This document shows, piece after piece, positions 27,290 to 62,012 of a stretch of 64,000 nucleotides of DNA (position 1 is the first letter of the stretch; each line of letters begins with the position of its first letter). The stretch comes from Thermoplasmatales archaeon. GTDB lineage: Archaea; Thermoplasmatota; E2; DHVEG-1. Both the position numbers and the translations under genes were made by a program. The notes beneath the pieces are model-generated. The model was not told the DNA's origin, ran no database searches, and saw nothing but the letters and a program-made list of their open reading frames with translations. The stretch spans positions 2,012,848 through 2,076,847 of the forward strand of contig CP070724.1 in the NCBI GenBank assembly GCA_020350825.1, read 5' to 3'.

Positions 27290-29719
27290 TTACATTATTA
27301 CAAAGGGGCCTAGTATAAAGGCAGTTGCTGTTTGTTCTGCTTTCTCCGCAGTTACAATAATTTTAACGTTGCCAAGACCAAATATTAAACCCGATTTCAC
27401 TGTTTTTTCTCCTCCTGCAGGAATATCGAGATTGTTACCAGATTTATTACCACCAAGTAATATGAAATCTCCACTGAGTTTGATATTCCACTGTACACCA
27501 GTTGCCTCAGCAGTTCCAGTGTTTTTGATAATTGCGTTTACTTTGAGTAATCCATTAGTGATGTCGCCTATTTCAATTATAGGCAACTTAATGTTTACCA
27601 TTAATGGTTCTGACCAGTTGCTTGACCCACCATAAATATCCCTAGCTTTTACTCGTATCTCGTAATCTCCTGGCTCAGTCCATGAATGAGATGCTTCACA
27701 AGTTGCTCCAGAGTTATATGGCCCTATCCATCCGCTATGTGTCCCATCACCCCAATCCCACATATAGGATACTTGATCTCCATCAGGATCTGTTGTATCG
27801 GTAGTATATGTATATTGTTCTCCTGGCTTTTCACTTGGTTTTCTAGGTGTTTCTGGCGGGTCATTTACACCTGTCTCATAAAAACTAAGACTTGGGTCAC
27901 CAAATAAGTTTGTTTCATAGTAAACCCAACGTATACATGATCGACCGATGATATGGAGGTTATCCTCTTTGGAATCATGATTGGCTTTGCCAATTACGGG
28001 AATATTTTCGCCAAATACTGCATCCCAAAACTGCCTGTGAAATCGTTGTGAATCACCATCCGTGCTATATGACCAGAACCAACCATATCGCGCATTCATG
28101 ATTACTGCAAAAGCACCATGATCTGTTTTTACAGTGAAATATTCAGCAATACAATCATCGTAATCAAAGCCGCCTGCCATACAGCCCTGTGAGTATACAA
28201 AGCAGAGTTTATTATTTGAAAGTGTATTAACGTCGTAATTTTCCATTTTCATATCGTATTCATAATATGCATGTCCCAGGTGATTTATTATATGGACTCC
28301 ATTATTTATTACGGTCATGATTTCTGATGTTGGCCAATAGTTACCAGGCCAATCACGATCGTATAATGTTGTGATATTATATTCATTAGATGGTATACCT
28401 ATAGTAGTATATCCATCATCAGTTGAACCGTCAATTAGTTGGTCCATATAATTTCCACCCCAAGTAGCAATACCATAATCACCCATATATTCTCCAGCGA
28501 AACAAGCATTAGACAAATACTCCAACTCAGGATCCTGATTGATATAAGTAACAGTTTTACTCACAAAATTATTCACATCATTCATATTATCAACACAAGC
28601 ACGACCAACATAAACTTCAGCTATTAAATCTACATCACCGCCACCTTCTCCATCAGTTGGTTCTCCCCATTTGTTGTCACCGTCATAGTTGTATGGTCCA
28701 TCTAAACATGCATAATAAAGATCAGAGGGCATATATTCCTCGTAAGGGGTAGTATTTTCATCCAATCCGTATACCCATAACCATGGATCAGGGATGATAT
28801 TATCATCACCTCCAATGAGTACATAGTCGATTTCCCAATTGATATATGCATCTCTTATGTAGTTACGGATGTCTTCAAGATTACTGCTGCCAATGTCAGC
28901 TAATGTTTTGATTACTGTATCAATGCCTGTTGCACCATGGGCTTGTTTTAATGGTTCAAAACCATCTTTTAATGAATCTGTCGTGATTATAAGGAGATCG
29001 TGGTCTTCATTTCTGGATGTGGGTTTTGCACTCTTTTCACGATATCTTTCAGAAATCTCAGGATTGTCAACTTTCTTCATTACCTCAATTTTATCCTTTT
29101 CCAATCCCCTAAACAAATCTACTGAATTATCATCAGATATTGTCTCAATTGAGACTTCCAGGTTTCTATAATAAAATAGCCCATCTGTTACGGGATTGTA
29201 TTGGATTGGATGTAGTAAAAGAACGAGTAGGTTGTATCCTCTAAACTTATAGGTTCCAACTTCAGTGTACAGGGTTCCAGGATAAAAGGCATTAGAATTA
29301 TAAATCGTTGCATCTGGAGTCGGTACTGAAGGGTATATCGCTTGTGAGATTGGAATCGGTTTACTTGTTGGTTCGATAGTAAATTCTGTTTCAAGGGCAA
29401 TTTTCTCACCGGATTTGATATATATGGCGCTTACCTTTGATTTTGGAGGCATCAAAACATATGCTCCCTTTGACGGTATCATGGGTTCTCCAGTGTTTCC
29501 TGCAGGTGAACAATCAGCAAGTAGCACCCTATTGTAAACAGTTCCCTCAATATCAATGGTTTCCATTACTGGCCTTTGAAATGAATAGGTTGTATGTATA
29601 GTATCATCTGTTGAAAAACTACTGGCTGGTGCGATGATAGATAGAGGCGCTAACAATAAAATCATTGTAATAAAATAAGGTTTTATATTACGAGTTATTG
29701 ATTTAATATTTTTATTCAT
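27290..29719 (-). CDS. secreted peptidase family C25 (gingipain-like) with C-terminal PKD domain
   Basis: Signal peptide. C25-like His/Cys contexts NHLGHAYYEY and VYSQGCMAGGFD. PKD motif DPDGDQVSYMWDWGDGT. Confidence 0.7.
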   Translation of the reverse strand: MNKNIKSITRNIKPYFITMILLLAPLSIIAPASSFSTDDTIHTTYSFQRPVMETIDIEGTVYNRVLLADCSPAGNTGEPMIPSKGAYVLMPPKSKVSAIYIKSGEKIALETEFTIEPTSKPIPISQAIYPSVPTPDATIYNSNAFYPGTLYTEVGTYKFRGYNLLVLLLHPIQYNPVTDGLFYYRNLEVSIETISDDNSVDLFRGLEKDKIEVMKKVDNPEISERYREKSAKPTSRNEDHDLLIITTDSLKDGFEPLKQAHGATGIDTVIKTLADIGSSNLEDIRNYIRDAYINWEIDYVLIGGDDNIIPDPWLWVYGLDENTTPYEEYMPSDLYYACLDGPYNYDGDNKWGEPTDGEGGGDVDLIAEVYVGRACVDNMNDVNNFVSKTVTYINQDPELEYLSNACFAGEYMGDYGIATWGGNYMDQLIDGSTDDGYTTIGIPSNEYNITTLYDRDWPGNYWPTSEIMTVINNGVHIINHLGHAYYEYDMKMENYDVNTLSNNKLCFVYSQGCMAGGFDYDDCIAEYFTVKTDHGAFAVIMNARYGWFWSYSTDGDSQRFHRQFWDAVFGENIPVIGKANHDSKEDNLHIIGRSCIRWVYYETNLFGDPSLSFYETGVNDPPETPRKPSEKPGEQYTYTTDTTDPDGDQVSYMWDWGDGTHSGWIGPYNSGATCEASHSWTEPGDYEIRVKARDIYGGSSNWSEPLMVNIKLPIIEIGDITNGLLKVNAIIKNTGTAEATGVQWNIKLSGDFILLGGNKSGNNLDIPAGGEKTVKSGLIFGLGNVKIIVTAEKAEQTATAFILGPFVIM

Positions 29720-29809: not shown

Positions 29810-31126
29810 TTACATTTTAACCGCTTTGTCTAAGATAGTAAGGGCCTCATCAACCTCTTTTGAAGAAATAATAAGAGGTGGGCGAAATCGTATAGTGGTT
29901 GCACCACAACCTAAAACTATCAAGTCATTAGCATATAATATCTCTTTAATTTCATCTCGCTTTTCAGGAGTAGGAAGATCAAATGCACACATGAGCCCTC
30001 GTCCACGTGCATTATATATTTTATTAGGATATTTCTGCGCTAATTCTTCAAGACCTTCTAAGAGATGTTTTCCCTGTATCTCTGCGTTTTTGATGAGTCT
30101 TTCTTCCTCAATTATTTCAAGGTATTTCTGACATCGAACCATATCAATAAGATTTCCACCCCATGTTGAATTTAATCTGCTTGAAACAGCAAACACATTG
30201 TCTTCGATTTCATCAACTCTTTTTCCAACTATTATACCACAAACTTGTGTTTTCTTTCCGAACGCTATGATATCCGGTTCAAAATCGTAATGCTGATAAG
30301 CCCACATCTTCCCAGTTAGCCCTACACCACTTTGTATCTCATCAAGTATAAACATCATTTCATGTTCATTACAAAGCCTTCTTAGTTCTAAAAAGAACTC
30401 TTTTCGGAAATGATTGTCCCCGCCTTCCCCTTGTATAGGTTCTATAATGAGAGCGGCAATGTCATCTGGATTTTCACAAAGAGCTTGTTCTATCTCAGAT
30501 AGTGCTTGTTTTTCGAGTTCTTTCACGTTTTTGAGATTTTTTTCGGTGAGCGGGAATGTAATTTTTGGATTAATGATGCGGGGCCAATTAAACTTTGGAA
30601 AATATTTTATCTTATTGAAATTAAACGTATTTGTAAGTGATAGAGTATACCCTGTTCTTCCATGAAATGCTTCTTTGAAATGAATAATCTGTGTGCCAAG
30701 TTTGTCTCCATTTCCTTTCTCTATGTTTTTTCTCATTTTCCAATCAAATGCAGTTTTTAATCCGTTTTCTACTGCTAGTGCACCACCACTGACAAAGAAC
30801 AAATGTTGGAAATGATCTGGAACTGCGTATTTTTTAAAAGATTTAACAAACTCAGCCATTTCAGTAGTGTAAAGATCAGAATTAGTTGGTTTGTTTACTG
30901 CGAGTTCACCCATTTTTTTGATAAATTCGGATTTAGTAAGTTTAGGGTGATTGCATCCGAGAGGCAAAGTAGCAAAAAATGAGAAACAATCAAGCATATA
31001 TTTTCTTTTACTTGAGTCATAAATACGACAGCCTTTACTTTTTTTCAGATCTAAAACAAGATCAAGCCCATCAACTAACATGTATTTGGATAATGTTTTA
31101 TGGACATCTGCAGGTTGAATTGTCAA
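29810..31126 (-). CDS. lat: L-lysine 6-aminotransferase (lysine epsilon-aminotransferase), class III PLP aminotransferase
   Basis: Motif-by-motif match to LAT as I recall it: LVDGLDLVLDL, HLFFVSGGALAVENGLK, AFHGRTGYTLSLTN, IEPIQGEGGDNHFR, IAFGKKTQVCG, VSSRLNSTWGGNL, RGRGLMCAFDLP. Confidence 0.85.
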   Translation of the reverse strand: MTIQPADVHKTLSKYMLVDGLDLVLDLKKSKGCRIYDSSKRKYMLDCFSFFATLPLGCNHPKLTKSEFIKKMGELAVNKPTNSDLYTTEMAEFVKSFKKYAVPDHFQHLFFVSGGALAVENGLKTAFDWKMRKNIEKGNGDKLGTQIIHFKEAFHGRTGYTLSLTNTFNFNKIKYFPKFNWPRIINPKITFPLTEKNLKNVKELEKQALSEIEQALCENPDDIAALIIEPIQGEGGDNHFRKEFFLELRRLCNEHEMMFILDEIQSGVGLTGKMWAYQHYDFEPDIIAFGKKTQVCGIIVGKRVDEIEDNVFAVSSRLNSTWGGNLIDMVRCQKYLEIIEEERLIKNAEIQGKHLLEGLEELAQKYPNKIYNARGRGLMCAFDLPTPEKRDEIKEILYANDLIVLGCGATTIRFRPPLIISSKEVDEALTILDKAVKM

Positions 31127-31274
31127 GATCTTTTGCCCCCGTTAAAATTGACTATTGTATGTCAAAGCGGTAACTTTCGTGCTTATAAAATGGTATCGGT
31201 AGGTTTTTTCCTATTAATTAGTTAATTTAATGAGTCGAGTTTTTGGCTAGTAAATCGAAGGTAATCTGCTAATC

Positions 31275-33095
31275 TTAGGTTTTCATAAAAAATAGTTGGA
31301 TAAAGATTAACAGCAGTTTTTCTAACACTGGAAAACGGCTAAAAATTCTCTCTAAATTCCTTAAGGTGTTACTAAATTGTTGGTTTACAGGCATTGTTAC
31401 ATCGAGTGTACCCCACTCGCTCTCAACATTATGAATATCCTTAGCTTTTGCCATTATTGTGTATGTTCCTTCCTCATCCCAAATGTGTTTTGCCGTAACT
31501 TCATAGTTACTAGTGTAAGGACCAAGCCATCCACTGCTTGTATTATCCCCCCAATCGATTATTACATAAACATCATCACCCTCGGGATCTGATCCATTTA
31601 TTATGTATTCATACTCTTTTCCTGCATTTCCGTTCGTTTGACCTGTTATTGTTGGTTTATTTGGCGGCATGTTGGGAATTTCTATATACGCCTGGGTTAT
31701 ATCTGTTGATTCGCTGTTTTCCACGTCTGTAACAGTTAGGGTGACGGTGTAGCTACCAGTATCGATATATGTATGAATTGGATTTTGTTCATCTGATGTA
31801 TTTCCATCTCCAAAATCCCAAAACCATGAATACGATGGAATTCCTCCATATGCACTGCCTGTGAATTGAATCGGCATATTAAAAAAACCGTAATACGGTC
31901 CATTTGCATCGGCAATGAGTTCGTTTTCACCAAATGCAATTACCTTCCCATCGCCCGATCCGATGAATATTTTGCTAGCAGCTATAGCTGGAGATGATTT
32001 CATTCCTAATTCAGTTCCGAGATGATACTGCCAAATCTCGTCTCCATTGAAAGCATCGAGACAGACGAAATAGCTAGGAGCACCACAACAAGGATATGTT
32101 CCAAAATAAACTTTTCCATCTGCTACTGAAGGATGTGACCTAATACCGCCATTTATTAGATAATCCCAGATATAATCGCCTGTTTCTTCGTTTAAACAAA
32201 ACAACCCCCGATCACTAGAACCGATATAAACATAACCATAAGCAATTGCCGGTGAAGAATGCACCTCACCAAGTGTATCATAACTCCATATAAAACTACC
32301 ATCTTCTGCGTTTAAACAATATACATTATTGTCATTTGATCCAAAAATAACTTTTCCATTAAAAACAGTTGGAGATGACCATATTCCACTACTTGTAGTA
32401 TAAGTCCAAACAAGATCTCCATCAGTACTATCTAAACAAAAAAGAATCCCATCAAGTGAACCAAAATATACCTTATGATCAGATATAACTGGAGAGGACC
32501 AAATAACGTTTCCTGTTGGATAACTCCAAATAAGGCTTCCATCGTCAGCGTTTAAACAATATAATGCACCATCACTAGAACCAAAGTAAACATTACCATC
32601 TTTAACTACTGGTGATGATTCAACCATGAAAATGGTATCATAAATCCATATAAGACTACCATCAATGGCATCAAGGCAATACATCTTAGAATCCTTTGAG
32701 CCGATGTAAACTTTACCATCTGCAACTGCAGGAGAAGATGTAATCTCACCATTTGTTGTATAGTTCCATAGCATATCTCCATTGTTCATGTTGAAACAGT
32801 AAATCTTATTATCCCATGATCCAATGTACACTTTTCCATGTGAAACAGCAGGGGACGACGTAATAAAAAAATCCGTTTGGTATGACCATAGCACTTGATT
32901 GTTATCCGATGCAGTTGAGGTTGAAAATCCCAAATGCTCTGAATCATGGCGGAACATCGGCCACCAATCAATGTCAAGAGATCCGCGAGGATTTACTCCA
33001 TCAATTTTACTACCATTCATAGCCTCGCCCATTGGTAATAGTAAGGTAATAAAAAGTAGCATACAAATTAAAATACGTGTAGGTTTTTTATTCAT
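31275..33095 (-). CDS. secreted PQQ-repeat beta-propeller protein with two C-terminal PKD domains and a hydrophobic C-terminal tail
   Basis: Signal peptide. About eight repeats of GKVY(I/F)GS.D..(L/Y)YC(L/F)...G...W. PKD motifs WFWDFGDGN and IDWGDNT. Tail ...TMPVNQQFSNTLRNLERIFSRFPVLEKLLLIFIQLFF. Confidence 0.7.
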   Translation of the reverse strand: MNKKPTRILICMLLFITLLLPMGEAMNGSKIDGVNPRGSLDIDWWPMFRHDSEHLGFSTSTASDNNQVLWSYQTDFFITSSPAVSHGKVYIGSWDNKIYCFNMNNGDMLWNYTTNGEITSSPAVADGKVYIGSKDSKMYCLDAIDGSLIWIYDTIFMVESSPVVKDGNVYFGSSDGALYCLNADDGSLIWSYPTGNVIWSSPVISDHKVYFGSLDGILFCLDSTDGDLVWTYTTSSGIWSSPTVFNGKVIFGSNDNNVYCLNAEDGSFIWSYDTLGEVHSSPAIAYGYVYIGSSDRGLFCLNEETGDYIWDYLINGGIRSHPSVADGKVYFGTYPCCGAPSYFVCLDAFNGDEIWQYHLGTELGMKSSPAIAASKIFIGSGDGKVIAFGENELIADANGPYYGFFNMPIQFTGSAYGGIPSYSWFWDFGDGNTSDEQNPIHTYIDTGSYTVTLTVTDVENSESTDITQAYIEIPNMPPNKPTITGQTNGNAGKEYEYIINGSDPEGDDVYVIIDWGDNTSSGWLGPYTSNYEVTAKHIWDEEGTYTIMAKAKDIHNVESEWGTLDVTMPVNQQFSNTLRNLERIFSRFPVLEKLLLIFIQLFFMKT

Positions 33096-33353
33096 ATTAT
33101 TAATCCCCTAATATATAACTAATATATATCTTCTATTTAGACTTTATCCTAGAATTAATGGTATTGGTAGATTTACTGGATTGACTAACAAGTCAAAATT
33201 TGTTGATTAATTAGCGTTTTACACATTAAAAATTCAACTGATTTTTCATCCTTCATTCATTACTTTTATTTAAACCACAGCCTCAATAAATCTTTACCCC
33301 ATGTTTCTTCTAACTATCACACTAATAAGAGTAAATTGACTAAATAATAGAGA

Positions 33354-33383
33354 AAGAGTGGGGGAGAAGAAATATATAGGGAA
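33354..33383 (-). terminator. 9-bp stem hairpin downstream of the 33410-35365 gene (terminator candidate)
   Basis: gagaagaaa-N12-tttcttctc. Confidence 0.35.
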
Positions 33384-33409
33384 GTTTCTTCTCTCTCTTT
33401 TATAACAGT

Positions 33410-35365
33410 TTACACAAGTTTTATACTATTAATTTCACTGAGTGTTTCAAGATTATTCATCTTAATCATGTTATTTGAAATTGTGTAGAGAATATCGTCA
33501 ATGTAGAGAGAGCGAGAGATGGAAGAAGAACCCCAATATCCATAATAACCTGATTTAAGAATATCCTCGTCATCTAAATGAGTTATTCGGCCCTTGTATT
33601 CAAATCCATTTTCAAGGCTTAATCGATATACAAAGGCTCCCTGAAACGTAAATTCGCCATACATACTACCAGTATAGTCATCATATTGCTCTTTGATTTC
33701 ATCGCTTATCTCAAAGAGGTTTACAGGTATTACCAACAATTCTTTTTCTCTGTCAAACAAAAAAGCTTTATGGTCATATAGAGCTGGACTATCTGTTCCA
33801 CGATCTCCGATGATTATCTTAGCAACCTCTTTTGGATTCTTGAAATCACTGACGTCAAACAATGCAATTTTGAGCCCTTGATACCAGGCAAAATCTAAGT
33901 TACGAGATTCTTTTAGAGAATCGAGTGCTTCAATGGTGTCTTTTCCAATACCGATGATATGATTCTCATCGTAAGGGTGTAGATAATCAGAATACCCAGG
34001 TATTTTCAGTTTTCCAAGGATTTTTGGATTGTACGGATCAGATAAATCGAGTGTAAAGAATGGGTCGATTTTCTTAAAGGTTACAAGATAAGCCTTTCCA
34101 CCAAGAAATCTTGCTGAATAGATTTGTTCACCAGGAGCGATATCTTCTATTTCGGATACACGGTTTAAATCCTCATCTAGGATATAGACATTGTTGCTAG
34201 ATTTAACATTCTGATCCCACACATTTCCAACTGTTGTTGCAATCCTGAAAAATCCATCATGTTCATCCATGGAGAATTGGTTCAAAACACGACCTGGGAC
34301 ATCTCCTTGAGCAGAATAAGAGATATCTCCATCTTTTATCGAGATTTTATGAAGGATTGTACTTTCCCCATAATCGTCACTAGAGCCTCCAATCAGAGGA
34401 ATAGGATAAACATAATTATATTTTGTATATGCTAAGAAAATATTATTTTTCGATACATACATAGATTGAGAACTGCCAAGAAAAAAACTTTTTTGATTTA
34501 CTTCATCATCATATATGTTAATCGATATAACATGAGTCATAGTATCCAGTCTCTCAGGTATATCCACATAGTAAATCTGGTCGGCGGGTATTTTTCTTGA
34601 AACATCATTAATAGCTATCTCAGGTATGTTAATGGTTTCATTACCCTCACGAACACCGTAAATATTATAAGAATACTCAGTAGCGATAATATAGATGTAA
34701 TCGCCAATCATTCGGGAATCAAAGTATCCCCCATCTACTTCTATATCTTTTACGAATTCAGGATTTTCTCTATCAGTTATATCGTATATTTTAATCACTG
34801 TTGTCGATATTCCGCCCCACCAACAATATTCAGATGTATCATAGCCTAATGGATTTTTATATGAATTACCAAAAACAATGAGTCGATCTTTGGTGATGAA
34901 AATATTGCTGAGATACACATCGCTTTCCAACAAGATTTCAGATAAAATAATAGCTTTCTCCGCAGGATAAGCTCTTACAATAAATACCTTCTGATCTGCT
35001 ACAATATACAAATAAGTGCCATCTGTTTTTACAATATCTGGTTCATCCACACCTTCTACTTGGATATTTGTATTTGAGAAATCAACAGGTGTCCCAACAA
35101 CACCATTATTATCTCCAGCTTCGCCTCTTCCAGATTTTGAAAAAGCCATTGCAGGGACATCTTCACAGAGCCACCCATAACCAGTATAGTTCTCATAATT
35201 ACTATTCAGAAAATCAATGAGTTCGTCATAGGACGAAAATGTTTGAATTTCATATGTATATGTCCCTCTGCTAAGTGGCGATAGTGAAAATGCAGTAACT
35301 AGACTTGCGCATACCAACATGCCTAATACAATTATTCCTTTTATTTGAACATTTTTCAGGTTCAT
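33410..35365 (-). CDS. large secreted hypothetical protein (beta-rich, probable beta-propeller)
   Basis: Signal peptide MNLKNVQIKGIIVLGMLVCASLVTA. 651 aa, no catalytic motif recognised. Confidence 0.4.
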   Translation of the reverse strand: MNLKNVQIKGIIVLGMLVCASLVTAFSLSPLSRGTYTYEIQTFSSYDELIDFLNSNYENYTGYGWLCEDVPAMAFSKSGRGEAGDNNGVVGTPVDFSNTNIQVEGVDEPDIVKTDGTYLYIVADQKVFIVRAYPAEKAIILSEILLESDVYLSNIFITKDRLIVFGNSYKNPLGYDTSEYCWWGGISTTVIKIYDITDRENPEFVKDIEVDGGYFDSRMIGDYIYIIATEYSYNIYGVREGNETINIPEIAINDVSRKIPADQIYYVDIPERLDTMTHVISINIYDDEVNQKSFFLGSSQSMYVSKNNIFLAYTKYNYVYPIPLIGGSSDDYGESTILHKISIKDGDISYSAQGDVPGRVLNQFSMDEHDGFFRIATTVGNVWDQNVKSSNNVYILDEDLNRVSEIEDIAPGEQIYSARFLGGKAYLVTFKKIDPFFTLDLSDPYNPKILGKLKIPGYSDYLHPYDENHIIGIGKDTIEALDSLKESRNLDFAWYQGLKIALFDVSDFKNPKEVAKIIIGDRGTDSPALYDHKAFLFDREKELLVIPVNLFEISDEIKEQYDDYTGSMYGEFTFQGAFVYRLSLENGFEYKGRITHLDDEDILKSGYYGYWGSSSISRSLYIDDILYTISNNMIKMNNLETLSEINSIKLV

Positions 35366-35528
35366 ATTATCACATCACTTCCTTTTTATCCAAAATTATA
35401 TCCTCCAAAGTTTATATACTGTAGGAAAACGTTTGGAAAAAACCAAATAAACTCACAAGAAAGATGGGGATATTATACAATAGTCATAAAGAAAATTTAA
35501 ATAAATAGGTTAATTGAGTATTAATGTT

Positions 35529-36263
35529 TTAGGCTTTTTCTAGTTCAAAAATTAAATACTCATTATCATCCATGAAGACTCTTATATCATTTTGTTGAGT
35601 AACAAATCTGTTCTTCTCAAGGGTTAGCAAATAATCTCCTGGTGGAAGTCGTAAGACAAAGCATCCTCTGTTGATCAGTGGAATTCTTTTTGTAAAAGTA
35701 ACTCTTTTAAATGAATCTGATTGAACAGTAACTTTTACACCAGGTATGCTTGTATTAAACAGCCCACCAATAACCTGTCCTTTGATAGTTACAAACTTAG
35801 TTTGTGGAAAAAAATTGAATATAAATACACTGTCAGAATCTTCCGCTCTATTGTTATTATTGTCGTAGGCTTCTATTTTGACATTGTGTCCTAAAAATTT
35901 TTTTTCATTCCACGTCCATTTATAAGGAGGATCGTATACTGTATCTCTTAATTGCCCATCAATGTAGAAGTTCACCATTTTTATTCCAGATTCATTATCT
36001 GAAACCTCGGCTATAACATCGATACCTCCAATTATTGTAGGGGTAGAAAGCCCCCTTATCGCCTTGTTGTTTATATACAACTCTTTGTCAGGTTTTACAA
36101 GCTTTACAATGGGGGGGGTAGTATCATTTTCATTAGAAAATTCTGTAATCTCACTATAGTCTATATTAAAAGATATATTTTTAGATGATATTGGATTAAT
36201 ACCACTTATCAGTAACAAAGATATTATTCCAATTATTGCAATCTTTACAGCATTATTTTTCAT
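35529..36263 (-). CDS. secreted protein with carboxypeptidase-regulatory-like / Ig-like domain
   Basis: Signal peptide. C-terminal VTIKGQVIGGLFNTSIPGVKVTVQSD matches the CarbopepD_reg-like pattern. Confidence 0.4.
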   Translation of the reverse strand: MKNNAVKIAIIGIISLLLISGINPISSKNISFNIDYSEITEFSNENDTTPPIVKLVKPDKELYINNKAIRGLSTPTIIGGIDVIAEVSDNESGIKMVNFYIDGQLRDTVYDPPYKWTWNEKKFLGHNVKIEAYDNNNNRAEDSDSVFIFNFFPQTKFVTIKGQVIGGLFNTSIPGVKVTVQSDSFKRVTFTKRIPLINRGCFVLRLPPGDYLLTLEKNRFVTQQNDIRVFMDDNEYLIFELEKA

Positions 36264-36380
36264 AATTTAATACCTAACTTAGTATATTTATTATTTCTAA
36301 AATTATTTAAAACTTATTATACAGCTGGTATCTAAAAAACTTGTCTATGGGGAAAAGATTTTTTTATATAAAAAAATAGT

Positions 36381-37703
36381 TTATAGAACCTCGGTTTCTT
36401 CGTTAAATTTAATACCCATCCCTTCAAGTTCATCAAGAATTGGATCGTAGATCTCTGGAATTACAGGAATGTGAATTCCAGTAATATTGATTATCCCTTC
36501 CAAAATCATTTTAACAGCAATAGCTGCCGGCAATGTAACTGTACGTGCAATCGAAGAATCGCCATGAGGTATGCCATAATCAACCAATGTCGAAGTAACG
36601 TACTCCTTGCTAGAAGGATACTCTACAATAATCTCATGATACATCACAATCATATCTCGCTCTCCCTCACCTAATAACATCTTCTTCAGAGTTATTATAT
36701 TGAGATAATCTAGCGGATTGTAATTTTTTTCTGGAAGTAATTCATCGCTAAAAAGACCTAACCATTCAAGTCGTTTAATAACAGCAGAATATGGTTCTAG
36801 ACCAAGATATATCGCAGTTGCTTTTAGAAGATTTTCATCAGAGCTCACACCAATAAGATGTCTTGTAAGATCACCGTATGTTTTGCCAGAAAAACCATCG
36901 ACTGGTTCATCGCTTAGCCACCCCAAAGCTACAATTTTTCTCATAGTTTCACACCAACCAGTCATCCTAAATGTGCCACGATACACTGTTTTTGCGTCTT
37001 TTAATCCATAGATTTCCTTATAAGGTACAGAGTTTCTGTTTGGGTAGTTTTCAAATGTACCAACTCCTGGAACGTCCTGTAAAATATAGTTTTCAAAGAG
37101 CTGCTCACCAGGGATTGATATCTCCTCGCCATTTTCCAGCCATTTTGAGGGATTCTTGGATGCTAGAAGAACACCTCGGGGAGCCCATGAAAATTTGTAA
37201 CCAAAAGGATTGTTATTGGCCTCATAGGATGGAAGGGCACCAGTAGTAGATCTAAAACTAACAACCTTTCCACCTTTCATCTCGACATCATGGATTATCC
37301 TCATTGCAGACATATGATCGATACCTGGATCAAGGCCGCTTTCATTAAGAAGTAAAATCCCTACTTCTTTTGCTTGGTCATTAAGCTTTTGCATCTCGTC
37401 ACTTACATAGGATGTAGTTACCAGGTGTTTTTTATGTTTTATACATAGTTTTGCTACTTTAACGTGATAGTTATATGGTAATAGACTAACGGTGACATCT
37501 GACTCAGAAATTAGTTGCTCTAATGTTGAATCATCCAAAACGTTTAATGCCACTGCTTCTCCTCTTTCATGGGAATCTATTATTTTTTCGGCTTTGCTTA
37601 CTGTTCTGCTTGCCATTTTCACGTGATAATTTGGTTGATCCAAAAGATATCTTACTAGAGGTCTAGAAACCATCCCGGCACCAAGAACCAATACTTTCTT
37701 CAT
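36381..37703 (-). CDS. saccharopine dehydrogenase (NADP+, L-glutamate-forming; LYS9 / AASS C-terminal SDH-domain homolog)
   Basis: KKVLVLGAGMVSRP Rossmann start. SLLPY..H..VAK.CI, LDPGIDHM, PFGYKFSWAPRGVL, ENYPNRNS and KDMIVM segments align with the SDH half of eukaryotic AASS. Confidence 0.85.
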   Translation of the reverse strand: MKKVLVLGAGMVSRPLVRYLLDQPNYHVKMASRTVSKAEKIIDSHERGEAVALNVLDDSTLEQLISESDVTVSLLPYNYHVKVAKLCIKHKKHLVTTSYVSDEMQKLNDQAKEVGILLLNESGLDPGIDHMSAMRIIHDVEMKGGKVVSFRSTTGALPSYEANNNPFGYKFSWAPRGVLLASKNPSKWLENGEEISIPGEQLFENYILQDVPGVGTFENYPNRNSVPYKEIYGLKDAKTVYRGTFRMTGWCETMRKIVALGWLSDEPVDGFSGKTYGDLTRHLIGVSSDENLLKATAIYLGLEPYSAVIKRLEWLGLFSDELLPEKNYNPLDYLNIITLKKMLLGEGERDMIVMYHEIIVEYPSSKEYVTSTLVDYGIPHGDSSIARTVTLPAAIAVKMILEGIINITGIHIPVIPEIYDPILDELEGMGIKFNEETEVL

Positions 37704-37752
37704 TTTTTATCTCCCATAATCTATAGAACTGTTGGAGGCGAAATGGATTTCC

Positions 37753-39051
37753 TTATAAATATTTGTCGATGTACTGATAATCGGGTGTAAGTTTGCCGTG
37801 ATACAAAATAACCGCTTTTTTTATTGAGGGAGGCAAGTTACAATTGTCAAAATCCTGGGTGAAATCGGCTTTTACAATTTCTGGTACCAAAGTATGAAGA
37901 GCAATACTAAAAGCATGAGAAGATTCACGTGGTAACTCACATGGAAGATTGTCAATTCCCATAACAACAACACCTTCGTCAATGTATCCATCCTTTATCG
38001 TGTCTGATAAGGGATTATAAACAAATACTGGATTATCGGGGGTGGTTGCCTTCTCAGTAAATTCAATTGCCCCGTTAATGTCTATGCTTATATCTCCAAT
38101 TACTTGTAAACTCAAACATTCTGTATAATTTTTCTTCAAAAAATCCTTGGTAACAAGTCGTGGATACTGAGTATTCCAGTATATACAATTCATTAGAATT
38201 GTTAAATAAGGAACATATCTCTCAAAAATAGATTGATATTTTTCAGGGTACTGATAATAATCCTGAAGATCAAAGCTATCATTAGACGAAATCGGTTCTA
38301 CCATGTCTTCTTCTTTGAAAACTACTTTATATATACATTTATTTGAAGGATTATCATAAATCTTTTCCATTTCTTTAGGTAAAATCTCTTCCTCAGGCAG
38401 TATATCTAGGATTTCTTGACCACCTTTTGATACATTACCATATCCAGCAAATCCAATTATCAAAGGTGTTAAAGAATCGGAAAGTCCATTTTGTTGTATC
38501 TTTTTACCAATTTTTTTAAAATGCTCTTTGATTTCATCAAGATTTTTATAATAAATCGTTTGTTTGATTTCATTAAACGACGTGTCTATATTTTTGGAAT
38601 TCAACCTCTGCCCAAAAGCCCATAGAGTATCAACCATCCCTGCAATACCTGCAAATCTACCAAAGAAAATCAGACGATACCCACGCTTATCTGCAATTTT
38701 TTCATAATCAATTAAATTACACTTAAGGTCTATCATTTTCCTAAGCATAGGCATATTATAATTCTGACCTTTGACCGTATGAGAGAAGAAAATATAGGTT
38801 TTCCCATATTCAAAAAAATCGATAGGTATTTCCTTTACTGCAAAAATGGTTGGACAGTTTGATAAATCTTCTTTAACAACAGCACCTGCTTTAATATATT
38901 CATCTTCAGAATAAACACGAATTCGTGAGGGTTGAATGATTGTTTTAATACCATATTTTTCTTTGAATTCTTTAACATGTTTTGGAATTAATGGGACCCT
39001 TCTTTCCCACCGATTTTTGTCTTCTCTTCTAATACCTATTGTAAAAACCAT
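37753..39051 (-). CDS. lysine-ketoglutarate reductase / saccharopine dehydrogenase (L-lysine-forming; LYS1 / AASS N-terminal LKR-domain homolog)
   Basis: IRREDKNRWERRVPLIPKHVKEF, IIQPSRIRVYSEDEYIKAGAVVKEDLS, TYIFFSHTVKGQ, IDYEKIADKRGYRLIFFGRFAGIAGMVDTL and IDNLPCELP align with the LKR domain of AASS. Confidence 0.8.
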   Translation of the reverse strand: MVFTIGIRREDKNRWERRVPLIPKHVKEFKEKYGIKTIIQPSRIRVYSEDEYIKAGAVVKEDLSNCPTIFAVKEIPIDFFEYGKTYIFFSHTVKGQNYNMPMLRKMIDLKCNLIDYEKIADKRGYRLIFFGRFAGIAGMVDTLWAFGQRLNSKNIDTSFNEIKQTIYYKNLDEIKEHFKKIGKKIQQNGLSDSLTPLIIGFAGYGNVSKGGQEILDILPEEEILPKEMEKIYDNPSNKCIYKVVFKEEDMVEPISSNDSFDLQDYYQYPEKYQSIFERYVPYLTILMNCIYWNTQYPRLVTKDFLKKNYTECLSLQVIGDISIDINGAIEFTEKATTPDNPVFVYNPLSDTIKDGYIDEGVVVMGIDNLPCELPRESSHAFSIALHTLVPEIVKADFTQDFDNCNLPPSIKKAVILYHGKLTPDYQYIDKYL

Positions 39052-39116
39052 TAGTTTTCCTGAAACAGCCCATCTATTGAGATTTTATATAGATTTTGTG
39101 AAAGAATAATTGCTTA

Positions 39117-40187
39117 CTATTTGTATCGAAGAATTGCTCCAACATGTCCAAGATTATGTATTTCCTCATCATCGGTGAACTCAATTTCCGAATCGGTTCT
39201 TTCAGCAAACTCTAAAATTTCTTCAATTACATCTACCTCAGAAGTAGGATTACCACAATTTGGGCAGTTTTTAATCGCACCCGCTTTTAATAGTTGACAA
39301 TGCTCACATAGGCATCCCTTGAGTTTGTAATCTTTTTCAATTATGAGAAGTTCAACCTGTCCGTTTTTTACCGCGTTTAAAGTATCATCAAATCCATAAA
39401 CAGCAAGACCATCTTTTAGGATTTCTTCTTTTAACTGTTGAACTGCCCCCTTGCTTTTTCGTTCTTCTAACTCAGATATTAAATGAATAGATTCTTTTAA
39501 CAGCTCTTTCTCATCATCAATGCTTATGTCAATTACTTCAACAATTTTCTTTTTAAGTTTTTTAGAAAGCATATCACTGAACTGGAATTTTGCCTGCCCA
39601 GGGCCTGCAAGAACAATTTGCTCATCAGCAATTTTTTCAAGTGCATCCTTAACTTCTGAGAAGAAAGCGTGTATAGCTCCCTTTCTTAGCCTTTGAAAAC
39701 GCGCTTGGGACCAACCTCCCTTTTTATGTTTGTTCATAATATCTGCAGAGAGGTTTTTTTCTTGCTCTACTTTACCAAGAGAAATTGAAAATATTTTTGC
39801 ATAGTTTGAATTCAGAAGTACTAATGTAAAGGATTCCCACTCATCTTTAATCCTAGCAAGAGGGCGTATATATGGTGAGGAATCAACAATTAATGAATTG
39901 TTTATTTTAAAAGGTAGAGAGATGTGTTTAAAAAAATTATGTTTGTGAGATGCAAATATTGCTAATGTATTACCTGTATTTATATTAAGAAATTCCTTGA
40001 TTTTTTCCATTGTAATAATAAAATTTTTCTGTTCTTCTCCCGATAGTAACGACTTACAAGCTTTTTCCCGTCTCTCCAAGAATTTTATATTTGCATCTTT
40101 ATTAATGTAGATGCTGACATATGTATCTCGACTATCTGCATCGTAAATCTCTGACAATTCTCTAATTAATTCACTTAAATCATTCAT
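39117..40187 (-). CDS. eRF1/Pelota-superfamily paralog with GGW(SQ) in place of GGQ and a Zn-ribbon insert
   Basis: Central loop KHKKGGWSQARFQRLRKGA parallels the eRF1 sequence HGRGGQSALRFARLR. C-terminal end GHVGAILRYK matches eRF1/Pelota domain 3. CxxC...CxxC at CEHCQ...CPNCG. Confidence 0.6.
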   Translation of the reverse strand: MNDLSELIRELSEIYDADSRDTYVSIYINKDANIKFLERREKACKSLLSGEEQKNFIITMEKIKEFLNINTGNTLAIFASHKHNFFKHISLPFKINNSLIVDSSPYIRPLARIKDEWESFTLVLLNSNYAKIFSISLGKVEQEKNLSADIMNKHKKGGWSQARFQRLRKGAIHAFFSEVKDALEKIADEQIVLAGPGQAKFQFSDMLSKKLKKKIVEVIDISIDDEKELLKESIHLISELEERKSKGAVQQLKEEILKDGLAVYGFDDTLNAVKNGQVELLIIEKDYKLKGCLCEHCQLLKAGAIKNCPNCGNPTSEVDVIEEILEFAERTDSEIEFTDDEEIHNLGHVGAILRYK

Positions 40188-40591: not shown

Positions 40592-41092
40592 TTGTTTTTA
40601 TGTGCTGTTTTTTCCTTTTTTATATCAAAAAAAATGCATATAGGTGCTGTAAGCAAAAAGAAAATATATAGAATTCCTGACGGTAGAATTGCGTATTCCG
40701 ATTTGAATATTCCAGCAAAAGCATTGTTTTCAAAACGCTATAGAATAGCTGGTAAACCAGATTACATTGTGAAGAGAAATCATCACTATATCCCTATTGA
40801 AGTGAAATCAGGATCATATCCAAATCCACAGAGAAACCATATTTTACAACTTGCAACGTATTGTCAATTGATAGAGGATAATTATAGAGATTTTGTTCCT
40901 TACGGTATAATCATTTACAAAGACTCTGATTTCAAAATACCATTTGATCCAAAACTACGATTTGAGTTAGCATCTGTTATTAACGAGATAAGAGGATCGT
41001 TAAAAAATGATAAAATAGTATTAAATCATAATGATCCAGGGAGATGTAGATTTTGCTCGATGAGGTCGTATTGTACAGAGAAACTGGTTTAA
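40592..41092 (+). CDS. Cas4-like / DUF83 PD-(D/E)xK nuclease, C-terminal part (other reading frame)
   Basis: GKPDYIV...IPIEVKSG (D...E-x-K) and C-terminal CRFCSMRSYC tri-cysteine cluster. Starts with a hydrophobic segment. Confidence 0.5.
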   Translation: MFLCAVFSFFISKKMHIGAVSKKKIYRIPDGRIAYSDLNIPAKALFSKRYRIAGKPDYIVKRNHHYIPIEVKSGSYPNPQRNHILQLATYCQLIEDNYRDFVPYGIIIYKDSDFKIPFDPKLRFELASVINEIRGSLKNDKIVLNHNDPGRCRFCSMRSYCTEKLV

Positions 41093-44050: not shown

Positions 44051-46474
44051 TTAAATTCCACCGCCAGGTTTGATGTTTATAAAGATTAAGAATACAAAAC
44101 CGTTTAATTCTTTCGTATCCGTTGATCCATCTGGAATCCAGGTATCAACGTTTACTACTGTAGGTCCAAATCCAATTATGAAATTTGAATTTATAGTCTC
44201 TATTTCATCTGCGGCAATAGTTAGATCAGAACCTTCTGACACTTGACCAATAAACGCTCCGCCATCTAATGTAATTCTCCAATTCACTCCCGTTGCTTCA
44301 ACTGCACCGTTGTTTTCAATATCCACAGCTATTTTGAATAGTCCACCTTTGATGGTACCAATATTAAGCGATGGTCCTTCAACTATGTTGATTGTGTGGT
44401 TGGTAGACCAATCACTTTCGCCAAATTCATCCCTTGCTTTTACTTTTATTTCATAGTTACCTTCTACAATCCAAGCATGGTATCCTTCTACAGAAGTTCC
44501 GGAAGCTACTGGCCCTATCCAATCACTATAGGTTCCATCTCCCCAGTCAAACATGTATGAGATTGGGTCTTCCTCAGGATCTGTTGTGACAGCTGTGAAG
44601 GTGTATTCTACCTGAGTTATACCATCAGCTGGTCCAGAAGGTGCATCAGGGATCCCAGGATTTTTATTGGCATTTGTAGCGGCCAAATTTTGTATTGCAT
44701 CTATATCTGCCCCTGGGTTTATTTCGTAGGCATCCCCATCACCATCGTCAACTATCTTAACATATCTTGCAAAATCCACTGAAAGTCCATCCATATCAAA
44801 CTCTGTTGTTCCCATACCTGATCCTACTAAAACCCATGGTCCGTTCCAATTAGAAGAAACATACACCTGATATCCATCGTCTGTGCTATCACCTTCAACA
44901 ACTTTTAAATCAGGTTCATTTTCCAGATTAAAAATCTCTGTTCCCTCTCCCATGTCTAGAACTATATCTCCGCCTTTTCCCAAGGAGGCACAGTATTCAT
45001 CTGGAATACCTAGGGCATGGATTCCATCGGTAGGATTATTTTGAAAATTACCAGAGGGTGCATAGTATTTACACCACGTAACCTGATATGCATAATAGCT
45101 ATTTATAGGCTGTAATTCTATATCGAGAATTGTAGGATCAGTATCACTGGTTACTGTAACCGTCTCAATTTCTTCTGCGTAGCCATTTGCCTGGAAATGA
45201 ACAGTATATGTACCTGGAGAAAGCACATGATGGTAATCGCCAATAGCAGGGTCAGTAAACGTGGGCCAATATGCTTCCTCTACCCAAACAGTAGCGGTAA
45301 GCGGTTGACCTGTATTAGCATCCTTAACTAAACCCGTTAATCCTAAATTTGCGGCATCAATAATATCAAGCATTGCCTGACGGTTCTTATTCCATGAATA
45401 AGGGATGTTGCTATTACCGGTTTCAATGGTCCAATCTATATCACCTCGGCAGCCATAGCTGAAATCATTGGTATCACCCCTCGTTTGATACCAGTCATAT
45501 CCACGAATTGCAGTATAGCCACTTAATGCAGCATAGTGGTAAGATAGCTGCTGAATCATTGCATCATCAGGGCTTGGCTGCGCCTTATAATTCCACAAAT
45601 AGTTCACGTAAGCTGCTGTGGTATGGAAAGAAAGAGATAAAACAAAGTTGTTCTCAAGGGCATGCTGTCGAATAACCTGAGTTTCTGGCTGTGAAAACGG
45701 TGATGGACTACTACCAGAACCAGCCCACATATAACCATAATCCCTGTTGAGATCCACACCATTTGCATTGTAGCGAGTAGATGCTTCTCTGCCATCAGGG
45801 TTTACCATTGGTATAATCCAGATTTCCCGGTTATCAACCAGGTCTTCAATAATAGGATCACTCGCATAGTTATCTACAAGATGCCATGCTAAAAGTAAGG
45901 GTAGCTCGACAGACATAAACTCATTACCATGATGACAACCGCAGATACGTACTTCAGGCTCATTTTCCTCAATACTAGGATTGTCCGTTATCTTAAGACC
46001 CCAAATAGTCCGCCCTTGGACACTACTGCCAAGGTCGTATAGCTCTGCGATATTAGAATAGATATTGGCAATATTTTGCAGTTCACTGGTCATTGTAGAG
46101 TAAGAATGGAATTGACGGACAAATTCAGGAGGAAACATCTTTTCATTCATTTCTGCGAGATTTTCAAAAAGAATTTCTGATTTGAATCCAGAATTATGAA
46201 GCCATTCTAGTTCGCTATTAGTTATATAAGCTGTAACCTTTGAATCCTTAACATCAACGATATCAAGGTCACGATCAATCAATTCCTGCAATTGTGAACG
46301 ATGAGTAAATGAAATACTGACAACCTTCGACTCAGGTATTTGATAGATAGGGTATTGCCCGGGATTTGAATCATCCCCTACAATTTGGTTTCCTAATGTT
46401 ATAATCCCCGTAAAAACAGTTGCTATCAAAATAAATGAAAAAGCTATCGTTATAATTCTGGTTTTAATTTTCAT
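44051..46474 (-). CDS. secreted zinc carboxypeptidase (M14 family) with PKD domain
   Basis: Signal/TM start. M14 motifs CGCHHGNEF (HxxE), PMVNPDGR, NRDYGY. PKD motif YMFDWGDGTYSDWIGP. Confidence 0.8.
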   Translation of the reverse strand: MKIKTRIITIAFSFILIATVFTGIITLGNQIVGDDSNPGQYPIYQIPESKVVSISFTHRSQLQELIDRDLDIVDVKDSKVTAYITNSELEWLHNSGFKSEILFENLAEMNEKMFPPEFVRQFHSYSTMTSELQNIANIYSNIAELYDLGSSVQGRTIWGLKITDNPSIEENEPEVRICGCHHGNEFMSVELPLLLAWHLVDNYASDPIIEDLVDNREIWIIPMVNPDGREASTRYNANGVDLNRDYGYMWAGSGSSPSPFSQPETQVIRQHALENNFVLSLSFHTTAAYVNYLWNYKAQPSPDDAMIQQLSYHYAALSGYTAIRGYDWYQTRGDTNDFSYGCRGDIDWTIETGNSNIPYSWNKNRQAMLDIIDAANLGLTGLVKDANTGQPLTATVWVEEAYWPTFTDPAIGDYHHVLSPGTYTVHFQANGYAEEIETVTVTSDTDPTILDIELQPINSYYAYQVTWCKYYAPSGNFQNNPTDGIHALGIPDEYCASLGKGGDIVLDMGEGTEIFNLENEPDLKVVEGDSTDDGYQVYVSSNWNGPWVLVGSGMGTTEFDMDGLSVDFARYVKIVDDGDGDAYEINPGADIDAIQNLAATNANKNPGIPDAPSGPADGITQVEYTFTAVTTDPEEDPISYMFDWGDGTYSDWIGPVASGTSVEGYHAWIVEGNYEIKVKARDEFGESDWSTNHTINIVEGPSLNIGTIKGGLFKIAVDIENNGAVEATGVNWRITLDGGAFIGQVSEGSDLTIAADEIETINSNFIIGFGPTVVNVDTWIPDGSTDTKELNGFVFLIFINIKPGGGI

Positions 46475-47833: not shown

Positions 47834-51540
<3,707 letters not shown>

Positions 51541-60140: not shown

Positions 60141-62012
60141 TTAGCTATAACCACCAATCATGAGACTTGGATCGCCTAATAGTAAGAATTCTTCAATTGT
60201 GAAATAATCTTCCCAAACGTTATTTATGTAATCATTTTGTGCATAGGTCAGCATTTCTCCTGCTGTTACTCCCTCTTCATATGCCTTGAAGAATTGAACA
60301 TTTAAATATCCTGCTCCAGCATAAACTCCATCATTGTCTACCCATGTATAGGCAGTTCGAGTAGCACCTATCGTTGCTATTGCACCTCCGTTTTCTTTCT
60401 TTAGAAACCACCAAGCAAAACAAGGATAGAAAACCGAAGGGTCATCTTCTATTTTTGTAAAGATGAGCAGGAATTTTACAAAATTAGGAAAGTACTCTTC
60501 TAGATCGGCAATGGTAAAATCGAGTTTTGTGGTAAGGCAAGCGTCAAAGAAAACAACAGGTAGCTTGTGGTTGTTTTTTAGGCCCATTATAAATGGCGAA
60601 TAATAAATAATCATCCTCTTTTTTGAGATAGCATTTGGACGATAGGTGCCCCACCCATGCTCAAATCCATGACCTGAATAGCTAACAAAACCTGCACCTT
60701 TTGTAATTGCTATGTTAAAGGTAATAGCGTTTAAATTACGTTTAGATGCCCATAATTTAACATGTGTAAAGTCAGGTAGTTGTTCTGCAACTTTTTTATT
60801 TGTTATTTCTCCCTCAAAAACAAATGGTGGCGCTCCATTAGCTACAGGGAACGTATCTCCGCCAGCAAGTATTATTTTTTTGAACCAGATTTGATCATAG
60901 GTTTCTTTTTCATAATTTATTATTTTGTTGACAACAATATCTAACTCGTTTTCATTAGTACAAGATATACGACCAATGTGTACATCAGCATATAAATCAA
61001 CACCGTCGATATTGATCATTTGAGGTGGAAATCCGCCCTCAAAAGATACCTCACCAAAAAGGTTATTCTCGTTTGTATCCCAGCTACAGAAACTACCGTT
61101 TTCATCATATATATCAGCATAATAGAGATCCGAGAGGATGTCAGGCTCCCACATTGAAGCATAGGTCGTTCTTATGGGTAGTTTTTTAATGTCCCCTACT
61201 AAGAGTACGTAGTGAGTGTCCCATTCTTCAACAGCATATTTAACAAAATATTTTATTTTTTCAGCCTCATCCCTTCCAGGAAAGTTTGCATAGATGTCTT
61301 CCAATATCACAAGGTTTGTCTCTAAACTATAACTATTCTTATGGTGAATTAAGGGTTCAAGGTTATCGGAAAATTCAAAGGGAGCTATGATAACAAGATC
61401 GTACATATCAGAAATTGTTATTAATTCTTGTTCTTCATACTTAATGCTTACCTCAACTTGCCTAATATATTGAATGGAATTTTCTAAAGGAATATATCTA
61501 GCAGGATAAATGTGTAATGAAAGAAATAGTACATGATCATTATTCTTATTAAGACCAGCTCCAGTAGTATATCTACACCACTCACCGGGGTATGGTTCAG
61601 AACTGGTATACACATCTTGATTAAACGTTGTCGCCGTGGTGACTATTGTATCATCTGTTTTTTGTTTAGATGGCACTGGTTTAACTTGTTTTTCAACGTA
61701 CATAGTTTTTACTTTTGAAGGCGTAACTTTTACATCTGTTACTTTTGTTCCGAGTGGAAATTCTAATGTTTTTGAAAAAACCGGCATCATTGGTGCTTCA
61801 TCATAAGTCATAAAAGAATTTATCTCTTTAACGTATAATTCTATAAATTCCACATTATCTATAATCACTGGCTCCGAGAAATCTTGAATAAATTCTATGG
61901 TTTCTGATTTAGAAGCAAAAACACCCTTATTTAATGTACTAGTAACACCTGGAGCAATTCCCATTCCAATAAACAGTATAATTATTCCTATAGCAAATTT
62001 TCTTTTATCCAT
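60141..62012 (-). CDS. secreted peptidase family C25 (gingipain-like)
   Basis: Signal anchor MDKRKFAIGIIILFIGMGIAPGV. His context VSYSGHGFEHGW and Cys context VVFFDACLTTKLD. Confidence 0.65.
   Translation of the reverse strand: MDKRKFAIGIIILFIGMGIAPGVTSTLNKGVFASKSETIEFIQDFSEPVIIDNVEFIELYVKEINSFMTYDEAPMMPVFSKTLEFPLGTKVTDVKVTPSKVKTMYVEKQVKPVPSKQKTDDTIVTTATTFNQDVYTSSEPYPGEWCRYTTGAGLNKNNDHVLFLSLHIYPARYIPLENSIQYIRQVEVSIKYEEQELITISDMYDLVIIAPFEFSDNLEPLIHHKNSYSLETNLVILEDIYANFPGRDEAEKIKYFVKYAVEEWDTHYVLLVGDIKKLPIRTTYASMWEPDILSDLYYADIYDENGSFCSWDTNENNLFGEVSFEGGFPPQMINIDGVDLYADVHIGRISCTNENELDIVVNKIINYEKETYDQIWFKKIILAGGDTFPVANGAPPFVFEGEITNKKVAEQLPDFTHVKLWASKRNLNAITFNIAITKGAGFVSYSGHGFEHGWGTYRPNAISKKRMIIYYSPFIMGLKNNHKLPVVFFDACLTTKLDFTIADLEEYFPNFVKFLLIFTKIEDDPSVFYPCFAWWFLKKENGGAIATIGATRTAYTWVDNDGVYAGAGYLNVQFFKAYEEGVTAGEMLTYAQNDYINNVWEDYFTIEEFLLLGDPSLMIGGYS

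Follow-up and report, generated by a model that had tools for sequence, protein, structure and literature searches.

We analysed a 64,000-nucleotide stretch of a Thermoplasmatales archaeon genome (GCA_020350825.1, contig CP070724.1, positions 2,012,848 to 2,076,847 of the forward strand), hereafter the window, for genes of the saccharopine pathway of lysine metabolism. The region from 27 to 42 kb of the window is a series of minus-strand open reading frames (ORFs), and three of them are the subject of this study. The first (37753..39051, -) encodes a predicted monofunctional lysine-ketoglutarate reductase (LKR, or LOR; saccharopine dehydrogenase of the L-lysine-forming type) of 432 aa with the Pfam domains AlaDh_PNT_N and AlaDh_PNT_C. 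The second (36381..37703, -) encodes a predicted monofunctional saccharopine dehydrogenase/reductase (SDH; L-glutamate-forming, Lys9/AASS-SDH type) of 440 aa with the Pfam domains Sacchrp_dh_NADP (257 bits) and Sacchrp_dh_C (87 bits). Read along the coding strand, SDH follows LKR after a gap of 49 bp. The third (29810..31126, -) starts with TTG and encodes a predicted L-lysine 6-aminotransferase (LAT) of 438 aa, a class III aminotransferase (Aminotran_3) that is recognised by TIGR03251.

Identity of LKR, SDH and LAT

The LKR protein was compared with all PDB sequences. Its residues 5-429 aligned with the LOR domain of human AASS (8dda; E=7.3e-81, 275 bits). The match to yeast Lys1 was 45 bits and covered the N-terminal lobe only, and that to alanine dehydrogenase was 24 bits. 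In the alignment with yeast Lys1, R18, K77, H96 and R131 correspond to R18, K73, H91 and R126 of LKR. In Lys1 numbering, we take K77 and H96 to be the acid-base pair and R18 and R131 to be the carboxylate binders. The end-to-end match to the human domain and the retention of the catalytic residues of Lys1 confirm the prediction of an AASS-type LKR (EC 1.5.1.8 or 1.5.1.7). The SDH protein matched saccharopine reductase of Magnaporthe (1e5l; E=3.7e-90, 306 bits), yeast Lys9 (2axq; 1e-86, 295 bits) and the SDH domain of human AASS (5l78; 2.3e-77, 264 bits), each over its full length, which confirms the prediction of a Lys9/AASS-SDH-type enzyme (EC 1.5.1.9 or 1.5.1.10). The E-values of the LKR and SDH matches lie far beyond chance.

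Both folds host several specificities, and we considered whether the two proteins act on other substrates, as other opine-type dehydrogenases or polyamine enzymes (carboxynorspermidine dehydrogenase, homospermidine synthase) do. The names given by NCBI would allow this. The identical (100%) protein of a Thermoplasmatales archaeon metagenome-assembled genome (MAG), JSW06_10445, is labelled 'hypothetical protein', and SDH is left as a 'domain-containing protein'. However, characterised LKR and SDH enzymes matched over their full length with 260-306 bits, compared with 24 bits for alanine dehydrogenase, 31 bits for the carboxynorspermidine-dehydrogenase-like protein of Wolinella (4ina) and 48 bits for Pyrococcus PH1688. 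The catalytic and substrate-binding residues of Lys1 are kept in LKR, and in several phyla the LKR and SDH genes show linkage both to one another and to genes of lysine enzymes. We regard other substrates as very unlikely. Since a grouping with AlaDH/PNT-fold or polyamine-type enzymes was not seen, the identification as LKR and SDH stands.

For LAT, the score on TIGR03251 (LAT_fam, an NCBIfam equivalog model named 'L-lysine 6-transaminase') was 667.5 bits against a cutoff of 520.8. The LAT of Mycobacterium tuberculosis (2cin) matched with 470 bits over residues 5-435, and its pyridoxal phosphate (PLP) lysine K300 and Glu243 align with K291 and E234 of the window protein. LAT, too, is 100% identical to a protein of a Thermoplasmatales archaeon MAG, which NCBI names 'L-lysine 6-transaminase'. 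Many LAT homologues are annotated from the internal Met16 (423 aa), but the alignment with the M. tuberculosis enzyme reaches upstream of Met16. The initial annotation, which was made from the sequence without database searches, had proposed these identities for the three genes and an AASS-like N-to-C order for the adjacent LKR and SDH; all of these proposals were borne out.

Three short motifs accompany the pair, all read from the minus strand. A TATA-like box, TATATAAAA (39083..39091, -), lies about 36 nt upstream of the LKR ATG and is a possible archaeal promoter of an LKR-SDH transcript. A Shine-Dalgarno-like GGGAG (37711..37715, -) lies 7 nt upstream of the SDH ATG, inside the spacer between the two genes. 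Finally, a run of seven T (36370..36376, -) starts 5 nt past the SDH stop and may be an archaeal oligo-T terminator. The three motifs fit, and suggest, a bicistronic unit in which LKR and SDH are co-transcribed.

Gene order in related genomes

A genome collection was scanned at the contig level with the single LKR protein. As its peptide patterns were too specific, the scan gave nine loci only, which serve as examples rather than as a census. SDH came next after LKR in three Thermoplasmatota, three Neomarinimicrobiota and one Ignavibacteriales genomes. Overall, the adjacency of LKR and SDH is kept in eight archaeal and four bacterial loci.

The eight related archaeal loci, in which LKR is 66-89% identical to that of the window, share one block order: RLI, further genes up to a pelota-like gene, LKR, SDH, a variable slot, LAT, the glycyl-tRNA synthetase gene (GlyRS), a CBS protein and an amidohydrolase. 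The order LKR-SDH-slot-LAT is common to the window and all eight. Histidine-degradation-type genes and an amino-acid permease adjoin the block in relatives. In the window, the slot (31275-36263, -) holds three genes with Big_7/CarboxypepD_reg, Beta_propel and PQQ-propeller/PKD domains, respectively, and each product has a hydrophobic N-terminal segment. LAT lies 5.3 kb downstream of the SDH stop, and it seems far from SDH because these three genes fill the slot. We compared the slot of the window with those of L010, L012 and L015-L018. Among the relatives it is occupied by one or another protein of secreted type, namely a PF09826 beta-propeller, a SIMPL protein, a C25 peptidase or a PGA_cap protein. 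The slot of L015 is empty, and the distance between SDH and LAT there is 100 bp. The slot thus turns over within an otherwise fixed block.

Outside this lineage, LKR and SDH have other lysine-catabolic genes as neighbours. In two Neomarinimicrobiota loci (L006 and L007), the gene after SDH encodes an aldehyde dehydrogenase of the ALDH7A1/Pcd type, the aminoadipate-semialdehyde dehydrogenase (AASADH), with E=7e-161 to human ALDH7A1 (4x0t) and 1e-162 to bacterial Pcd. Judged by these matches, each of the two loci is a complete predicted three-gene unit leading from lysine to aminoadipate. The 87-kb contig L014 carries a protein of a cluster named Promethearchaeota (Asgard), and its SDH and LKR genes are divergently arranged. 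They are flanked by Pfam signatures of lysine fermentation: Kdd (3,5-diaminohexanoate dehydrogenase), KamA (lysine 2,3-aminomutase), KamD and KamE (both subunits of the B12-dependent beta-lysine 5,6-aminomutase) and Kce (3-keto-5-aminohexanoate cleavage enzyme). Positions 1-21368 of L014 thus hold a near-complete clostridial-type lysine fermentation set beside LKR and SDH. The Asgard-type archaeon would carry two different lysine-degrading routes in one cluster.

Three loci deserve separate mention. In L001 (11300-13445), the closest relative in the genome collection, an insert of 2.1 kb parts LKR from SDH; it holds small ORFs without a Pfam match and no recognisable domains. In L004 (11379-12729, Ignavibacteriales), SDH is split into two overlapping ORFs, a possible sign of a frameshift, a sequencing error or a pseudogene. 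L009 (1-2258), which belongs to a MAG labelled Thermodesulfobacteriota, is probably a misbinned archaeal contig: the identity of its LKR and SDH to the archaeal proteins is 73-79%, compared with 44-50% for genuine bacterial homologues.

Direction of the pathway and cofactor signatures

We consider it likely that the window encodes a prokaryotic, unfused saccharopine pathway which, together with LAT, feeds lysine into catabolism via aminoadipate semialdehyde. In this pathway, LKR would condense L-lysine with 2-oxoglutarate and reduce the imine to saccharopine. SDH would oxidise saccharopine on the other side of the nitrogen, yielding glutamate and 2-aminoadipate 6-semialdehyde, which would be in equilibrium with piperideine-6-carboxylate (P6C). 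The PLP-dependent LAT would form the same semialdehyde from lysine in a single transamination step. The convergence of both routes on aminoadipate semialdehyde, already part of the initial annotation, is supported. Lysine freed by the many peptidases of the organism would thus enter catabolism through LKR/SDH and LAT. A plausible fate of the semialdehyde is conversion to aminoadipate, 2-oxoadipate and glutaryl-CoA via ferredoxin-dependent 2-oxoacid oxidoreductases, enzymes that have been reported for related sediment Thermoplasmatota (PMC6461988).

We infer the catabolic direction because LKR is of the AASS type, because the partner genes in other lineages are catabolic and because the window has a proteolytic content. 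Domain matches identify two gingipain-like C25 peptidases (27290-29719, -, and 60141-62012, -), one of which has a PKD domain, and an M14 carboxypeptidase (44051-46474, -), which carries both PKD and CarboxypepD_reg domains. An M24 peptidase is also encoded in the window. The secreted-peptidase setting described in the initial annotation is thus present, with the two C25 and the M14 enzymes, of secreted or extracellular type, near the lysine genes. These peptidases fit the extracellular protein degradation reported for MBG-D-type archaea (PMC6461988).

The cofactor signatures were examined at the end of beta2 of the Rossmann fold, where Asp goes with NAD (animal type) and Arg/Thr with NADP (fungal type). 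SDH has 'MASRT' at this site, compared with 'VACRT' in the fungal enzyme; human SDH has 'GSD' (Ser-Asp) and the Neomarinimicrobiota enzymes have Ala-Asp. Among the 120 closest SDH homologues, which are archaeal-type, the motif is SRT in 116 and TRT in two, and the SRT-type motif also occurs in the Asgard-type SDH. By the usual rule, the motif predicts NADP(H) use by SDH, which suggests that EC 1.5.1.10 chemistry is likelier than EC 1.5.1.9. In human LKR, the determinants of NADPH specificity are S266 and R267 (PMC9490328). At these positions, 111 of the 120 closest LKR homologues have K/R-E-E. If LKR also used NADPH, the LKR-SDH pair would be redox-neutral and chemically equivalent to LAT.

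Several observations weigh against the catabolic reading. First, the 64-kb window has no aldehyde dehydrogenase gene, nor do the archaeal loci fetched show one within 10 kb of the pair, and a tblastn search for AASADH in the window and all fetched loci gave matches only in Neomarinimicrobiota. Second, two enzyme systems for one product are an unexplained redundancy. Third, SDH has the Ser-Arg-Thr of the NADP-dependent, biosynthetic fungal Lys9 and lacks the Asp of the human and Neomarinimicrobiota enzymes. Fourth, human S266/R267 are K246/E247 in the window LKR, and these columns, which vary even among eukaryotes, do not indicate its cofactor. Finally, the whole block, including the RLI, GlyRS and CBS genes, is syntenic in the lineage, and the linkage of LAT may reflect general synteny and not function. 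The surrounding housekeeping genes are just as conserved. By itself, the linkage of LAT therefore says little about functional coupling, and only the common substrate and product lend it weight.

The SDH motif raises the question of whether the pair runs in the fungal, biosynthetic direction, from semialdehyde, glutamate and NADPH to saccharopine by a Lys9-like step and on to lysine and 2-oxoglutarate by a Lys1-like step. SDH is nearer to fungal Lys9 (306 and 295 bits) than to human SDH (264 bits), and the fungal 'xRT' motif of the NADP type is found in 118 of its 120 closest homologues. In addition, the Joint Genome Institute (JGI) names some SDH relatives 'saccharopine dehydrogenase (NADP+, L-glutamate forming)', and the residues past beta2 of LKR include Glu-Glu-Asp, which could indicate NAD. 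However, LKR belongs with the catabolic AASS enzymes (275 bits) rather than with Lys1 (45 bits), and the window has no gene for a Lys2-like aminoadipate reductase. The partner genes are catabolic, as evidenced by AASADH in bacteria, Kam/Kdd/Kce in the Asgard-type contig and LAT in the window, and a biosynthetic route would be of little use to a peptide-scavenging organism. Biosynthesis is thus an unlikely role for the pair.

The redundancy could be accounted for by a metabolic transhydrogenase cycle, in which LAT converts lysine to the semialdehyde and an NADP-type SDH and an NAD-type LKR lead back to lysine, with a net hydride transfer between NADPH and NAD+. LKR and SDH together have the same net reaction as LAT, the SDH motif is of the NADP type, LKR lacks the human NADPH determinants and the linkage of the three genes is conserved. 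Nevertheless, the cycle is conjecture throughout. The bacterial and Asgard-type loci examined carry LKR and SDH and no LAT in the stretches covered, and the Lys/Arg that is conserved where human LKR has S266 might just as well bind the phosphate of NADPH. We give such a cycle very little credence.

The missing aldehyde dehydrogenase bears on another role, the production of P6C by the three enzymes for pipecolate or aminoadipate as a compatible solute or stress metabolite, and not for energy-yielding fermentation. According to PMC7253579, which cites Neshich et al. (2013), the saccharopine pathway of plants and bacteria is connected with osmotic stress and with the formation of pipecolate. The homologues stem from sediment and other environmental metagenomes and MAGs, and no downstream dehydrogenase lies near the genes in the window or the archaeal loci. 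On the other side, no gene for a pyrroline-5-carboxylate (P5C)/P6C reductase or a cyclodeaminase was found in the window or related loci, and the lysine-fermentation genes of L014 and the AASADH of L006 point to degradation. A stress-related role seems improbable, and lysine catabolism is the reading that we favour.

Distribution and phylogeny of LKR

An exhaustive HMMER search with LKR covered 1.84 billion representatives clustered at 50% identity. It gave 2940 matching clusters at E<=1e-3 and 670 at E<=1e-30. Among clusters at 90% identity there were at least 7987 matches at E<=1e-10. The best 120 of the latter are all at least 65% identical to LKR, and every one with a named organism is a Thermoplasmatales MAG. 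The searches of the 90% clusters with SDH and LAT gave the same picture. Many of the LKR relatives are named 'alpha-aminoadipic semialdehyde synthase' by JGI. The initial annotation had regarded the saccharopine route as uncommon in prokaryotes and especially in archaea, and this did not hold in view of these counts and of the Asgard cluster. The LKR-SDH pair is a standard feature of a widespread uncultured Thermoplasmatota lineage and not a rarity.

The best 150 matches among the 50% clusters fall into two size classes, one of about 430 aa and one of 850-1130 aa. The organism names found in the long class are eukaryotic (Andalucia, Cavostelium), and those in the short class include candidate division WOR-3, CSSED10-310, Uabimicrobium (planctomycete), Calditrichota and the Promethearchaeota (Asgard) cluster. 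Monofunctional LKRs of about 430 aa fill hundreds of 50%-identity clusters of bacteria and archaea. Length as a marker of eukaryotic origin was dropped, as one protein of 690 aa groups with the prokaryotes.

In a rough neighbour-joining distance tree (bootstrap supports out of 100), the Thermoplasmatota LKRs are monophyletic (100/100). The eukaryote-type fused forms make up a split of their own (72/100), and the window LKR stands among the prokaryotic forms of about 430 aa. The deep supports are 38/100 for Thermoplasmatota with P0121, 1/100 when the Asgard cluster is added and 4/100 for eukaryotes with the Calditrichota-type proteins. The identity of the window LKR averages 42% (maximum 52%) to prokaryotic representatives, compared with 38% (maximum 43%) to eukaryote-type ones. 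Because this is a distance tree only, we draw a single conclusion from it, namely that nothing points to a transfer from a eukaryote to the archaeon, and we make no claim on a donor or a sister group. The description of the genes as eukaryote-like, with a donor lineage to be sought, is thus not upheld.

Recent horizontal acquisition was also considered and rejected. The composition of the window is uniform (GC 0.29-0.40), and the block is kept among relatives down to 66% identity.

Since an Asgard homologue exists and is linked to a full lysine-fermentation cluster, one may ask whether unfused LKR and SDH of Asgard or Thermoplasmatota archaea are the stock from which the fused eukaryotic AASS arose, which would make eukaryotic lysine catabolism archaeal and not bacterial in origin. 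The nearest prokaryotic branch to the eukaryotic clade has a support of 4/100 in the rough tree. We consider this origin quite improbable.

Other genes in the window

The window is part of an archaeal chromosome, as the lysine genes are flanked by genes for RLI, a pelota/aRF1-like protein, a dimeric GlyRS, ribosomal proteins L1 and L10, TiaS and a NOG1-type GTPase. LKR is immediately preceded by the pelota/aRF1-like gene (39117-40187, -). Among Pfam families its product matches baeRF_family10 best, and the score on the aRF1 model is only 125 bits, below the cutoff of 235; the product may be pelota or a divergent release-factor paralogue. A pelota-like gene occupies the same position in most archaeal relatives examined. 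Between this gene and RLI, a stand-alone Cas4/PD-(D/E)XK nuclease is encoded on the plus strand (40592-41092, +), and it keeps its position in L010, L012, L016 and L017. No CRISPR-associated genes were found among the annotated ORFs of the window; repeats were not searched for. Further away, an NAD-dependent DNA ligase of bacterial LigA architecture with a BRCT domain overlaps by one base with a PolX/PHP family polymerase (47834-51540, -). The two look like a bacterial-type repair gene pair in an archaeal genome.

Comparison with known systems

We compared the window genes with four known systems. The first is the bifunctional AASS of animals, plants and many protists. Both window proteins are homologous to its domains over their full length, with about 40% identity and 275 and 264 bits to the human domains, and the order of LKR before SDH is the same. 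The C-terminal LOR segment, which is essential for activity in the human enzyme (PMC9490328), is present in the window LKR. On the other hand, the window has two genes with a 49-bp spacer and no interdomain linker, its SDH has Ser-Arg-Thr and not the Ser-Asp of the human enzyme, and its LKR has Lys-Glu in place of human Ser266-Arg267. The eukaryotic forms also separate from it in the tree with 72/100. The AASS-type LKR is not a eukaryotic speciality, which corrects a common assumption.

Bacteria, too, can have LKR and SDH as separate neighbouring genes. Such genes, and how they relate to the enzyme of plants and animals, were described by Serrano et al. (2012, FEBS Lett) and by Neshich et al. 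(2013, ISME J), as these studies are cited in PMC9490328 and PMC7253579. The window resembles such pairs in having separate adjacent genes for proteins of about 430-440 aa in the order LKR-SDH, and its proteins are 44-50% identical to examples from Neomarinimicrobiota, Ignavibacteriales and Chloroflexota. It differs in that the host is an archaeon, that LAT is linked to the pair and the adjacent AASADH of L006/L007 is absent, and that the SDH motif is of the NADP type, in contrast to the Asp of the Neomarinimicrobiota enzymes.

With fungal Lys9 and Lys1, the likeness is that SDH is closest to the Lys9 structures and shares the 'xRT' motif, and that the catalytic residues of Lys1 are kept in LKR. 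In contrast, the match of LKR to Lys1 covers only the N-terminal lobe and that to AASS the full length, and the genomic partners are catabolic. The fourth system is the LAT of M. tuberculosis (Rv3290c, PDB 2cin), which the window LAT matches over its full length with 470 bits, including the PLP lysine and the equivalent of Glu243. The window enzyme differs in being archaeal and in lying in a conserved block with LKR and SDH. LAT has also been described in Streptomyces and Flavobacterium.

Detrital protein is rich in lysine, one of its most abundant amino acids. The literature searched does not discuss its disposal by the dominant protein degraders among sediment archaea. Lysine is not mentioned in the main text of two key papers on these archaea, and LAT (K03918) in MBG-D MAGs appears as an entry in a supplementary table only, without comment. 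Judged by title and abstract, none of the literature searched that names saccharopine together with Asgard or the word stem Thermoplasmat is on an archaeal saccharopine pathway. The LKR-SDH-LAT block and the Asgard-type lysine-fermentation cluster give concrete, testable gene targets for the disposal of lysine by sediment archaea. In addition, since the archaeal LKR still goes under 'hypothetical protein' at NCBI, these genes could serve to derive an annotation rule. They leave the understanding of how the saccharopine pathway works unchanged. Compared with the known systems, they represent a modest extension of a known pathway to archaea, and their small additions are an LKR-SDH-LAT block that is conserved within a Thermoplasmatota lineage and an SDH of the predicted NADP type.

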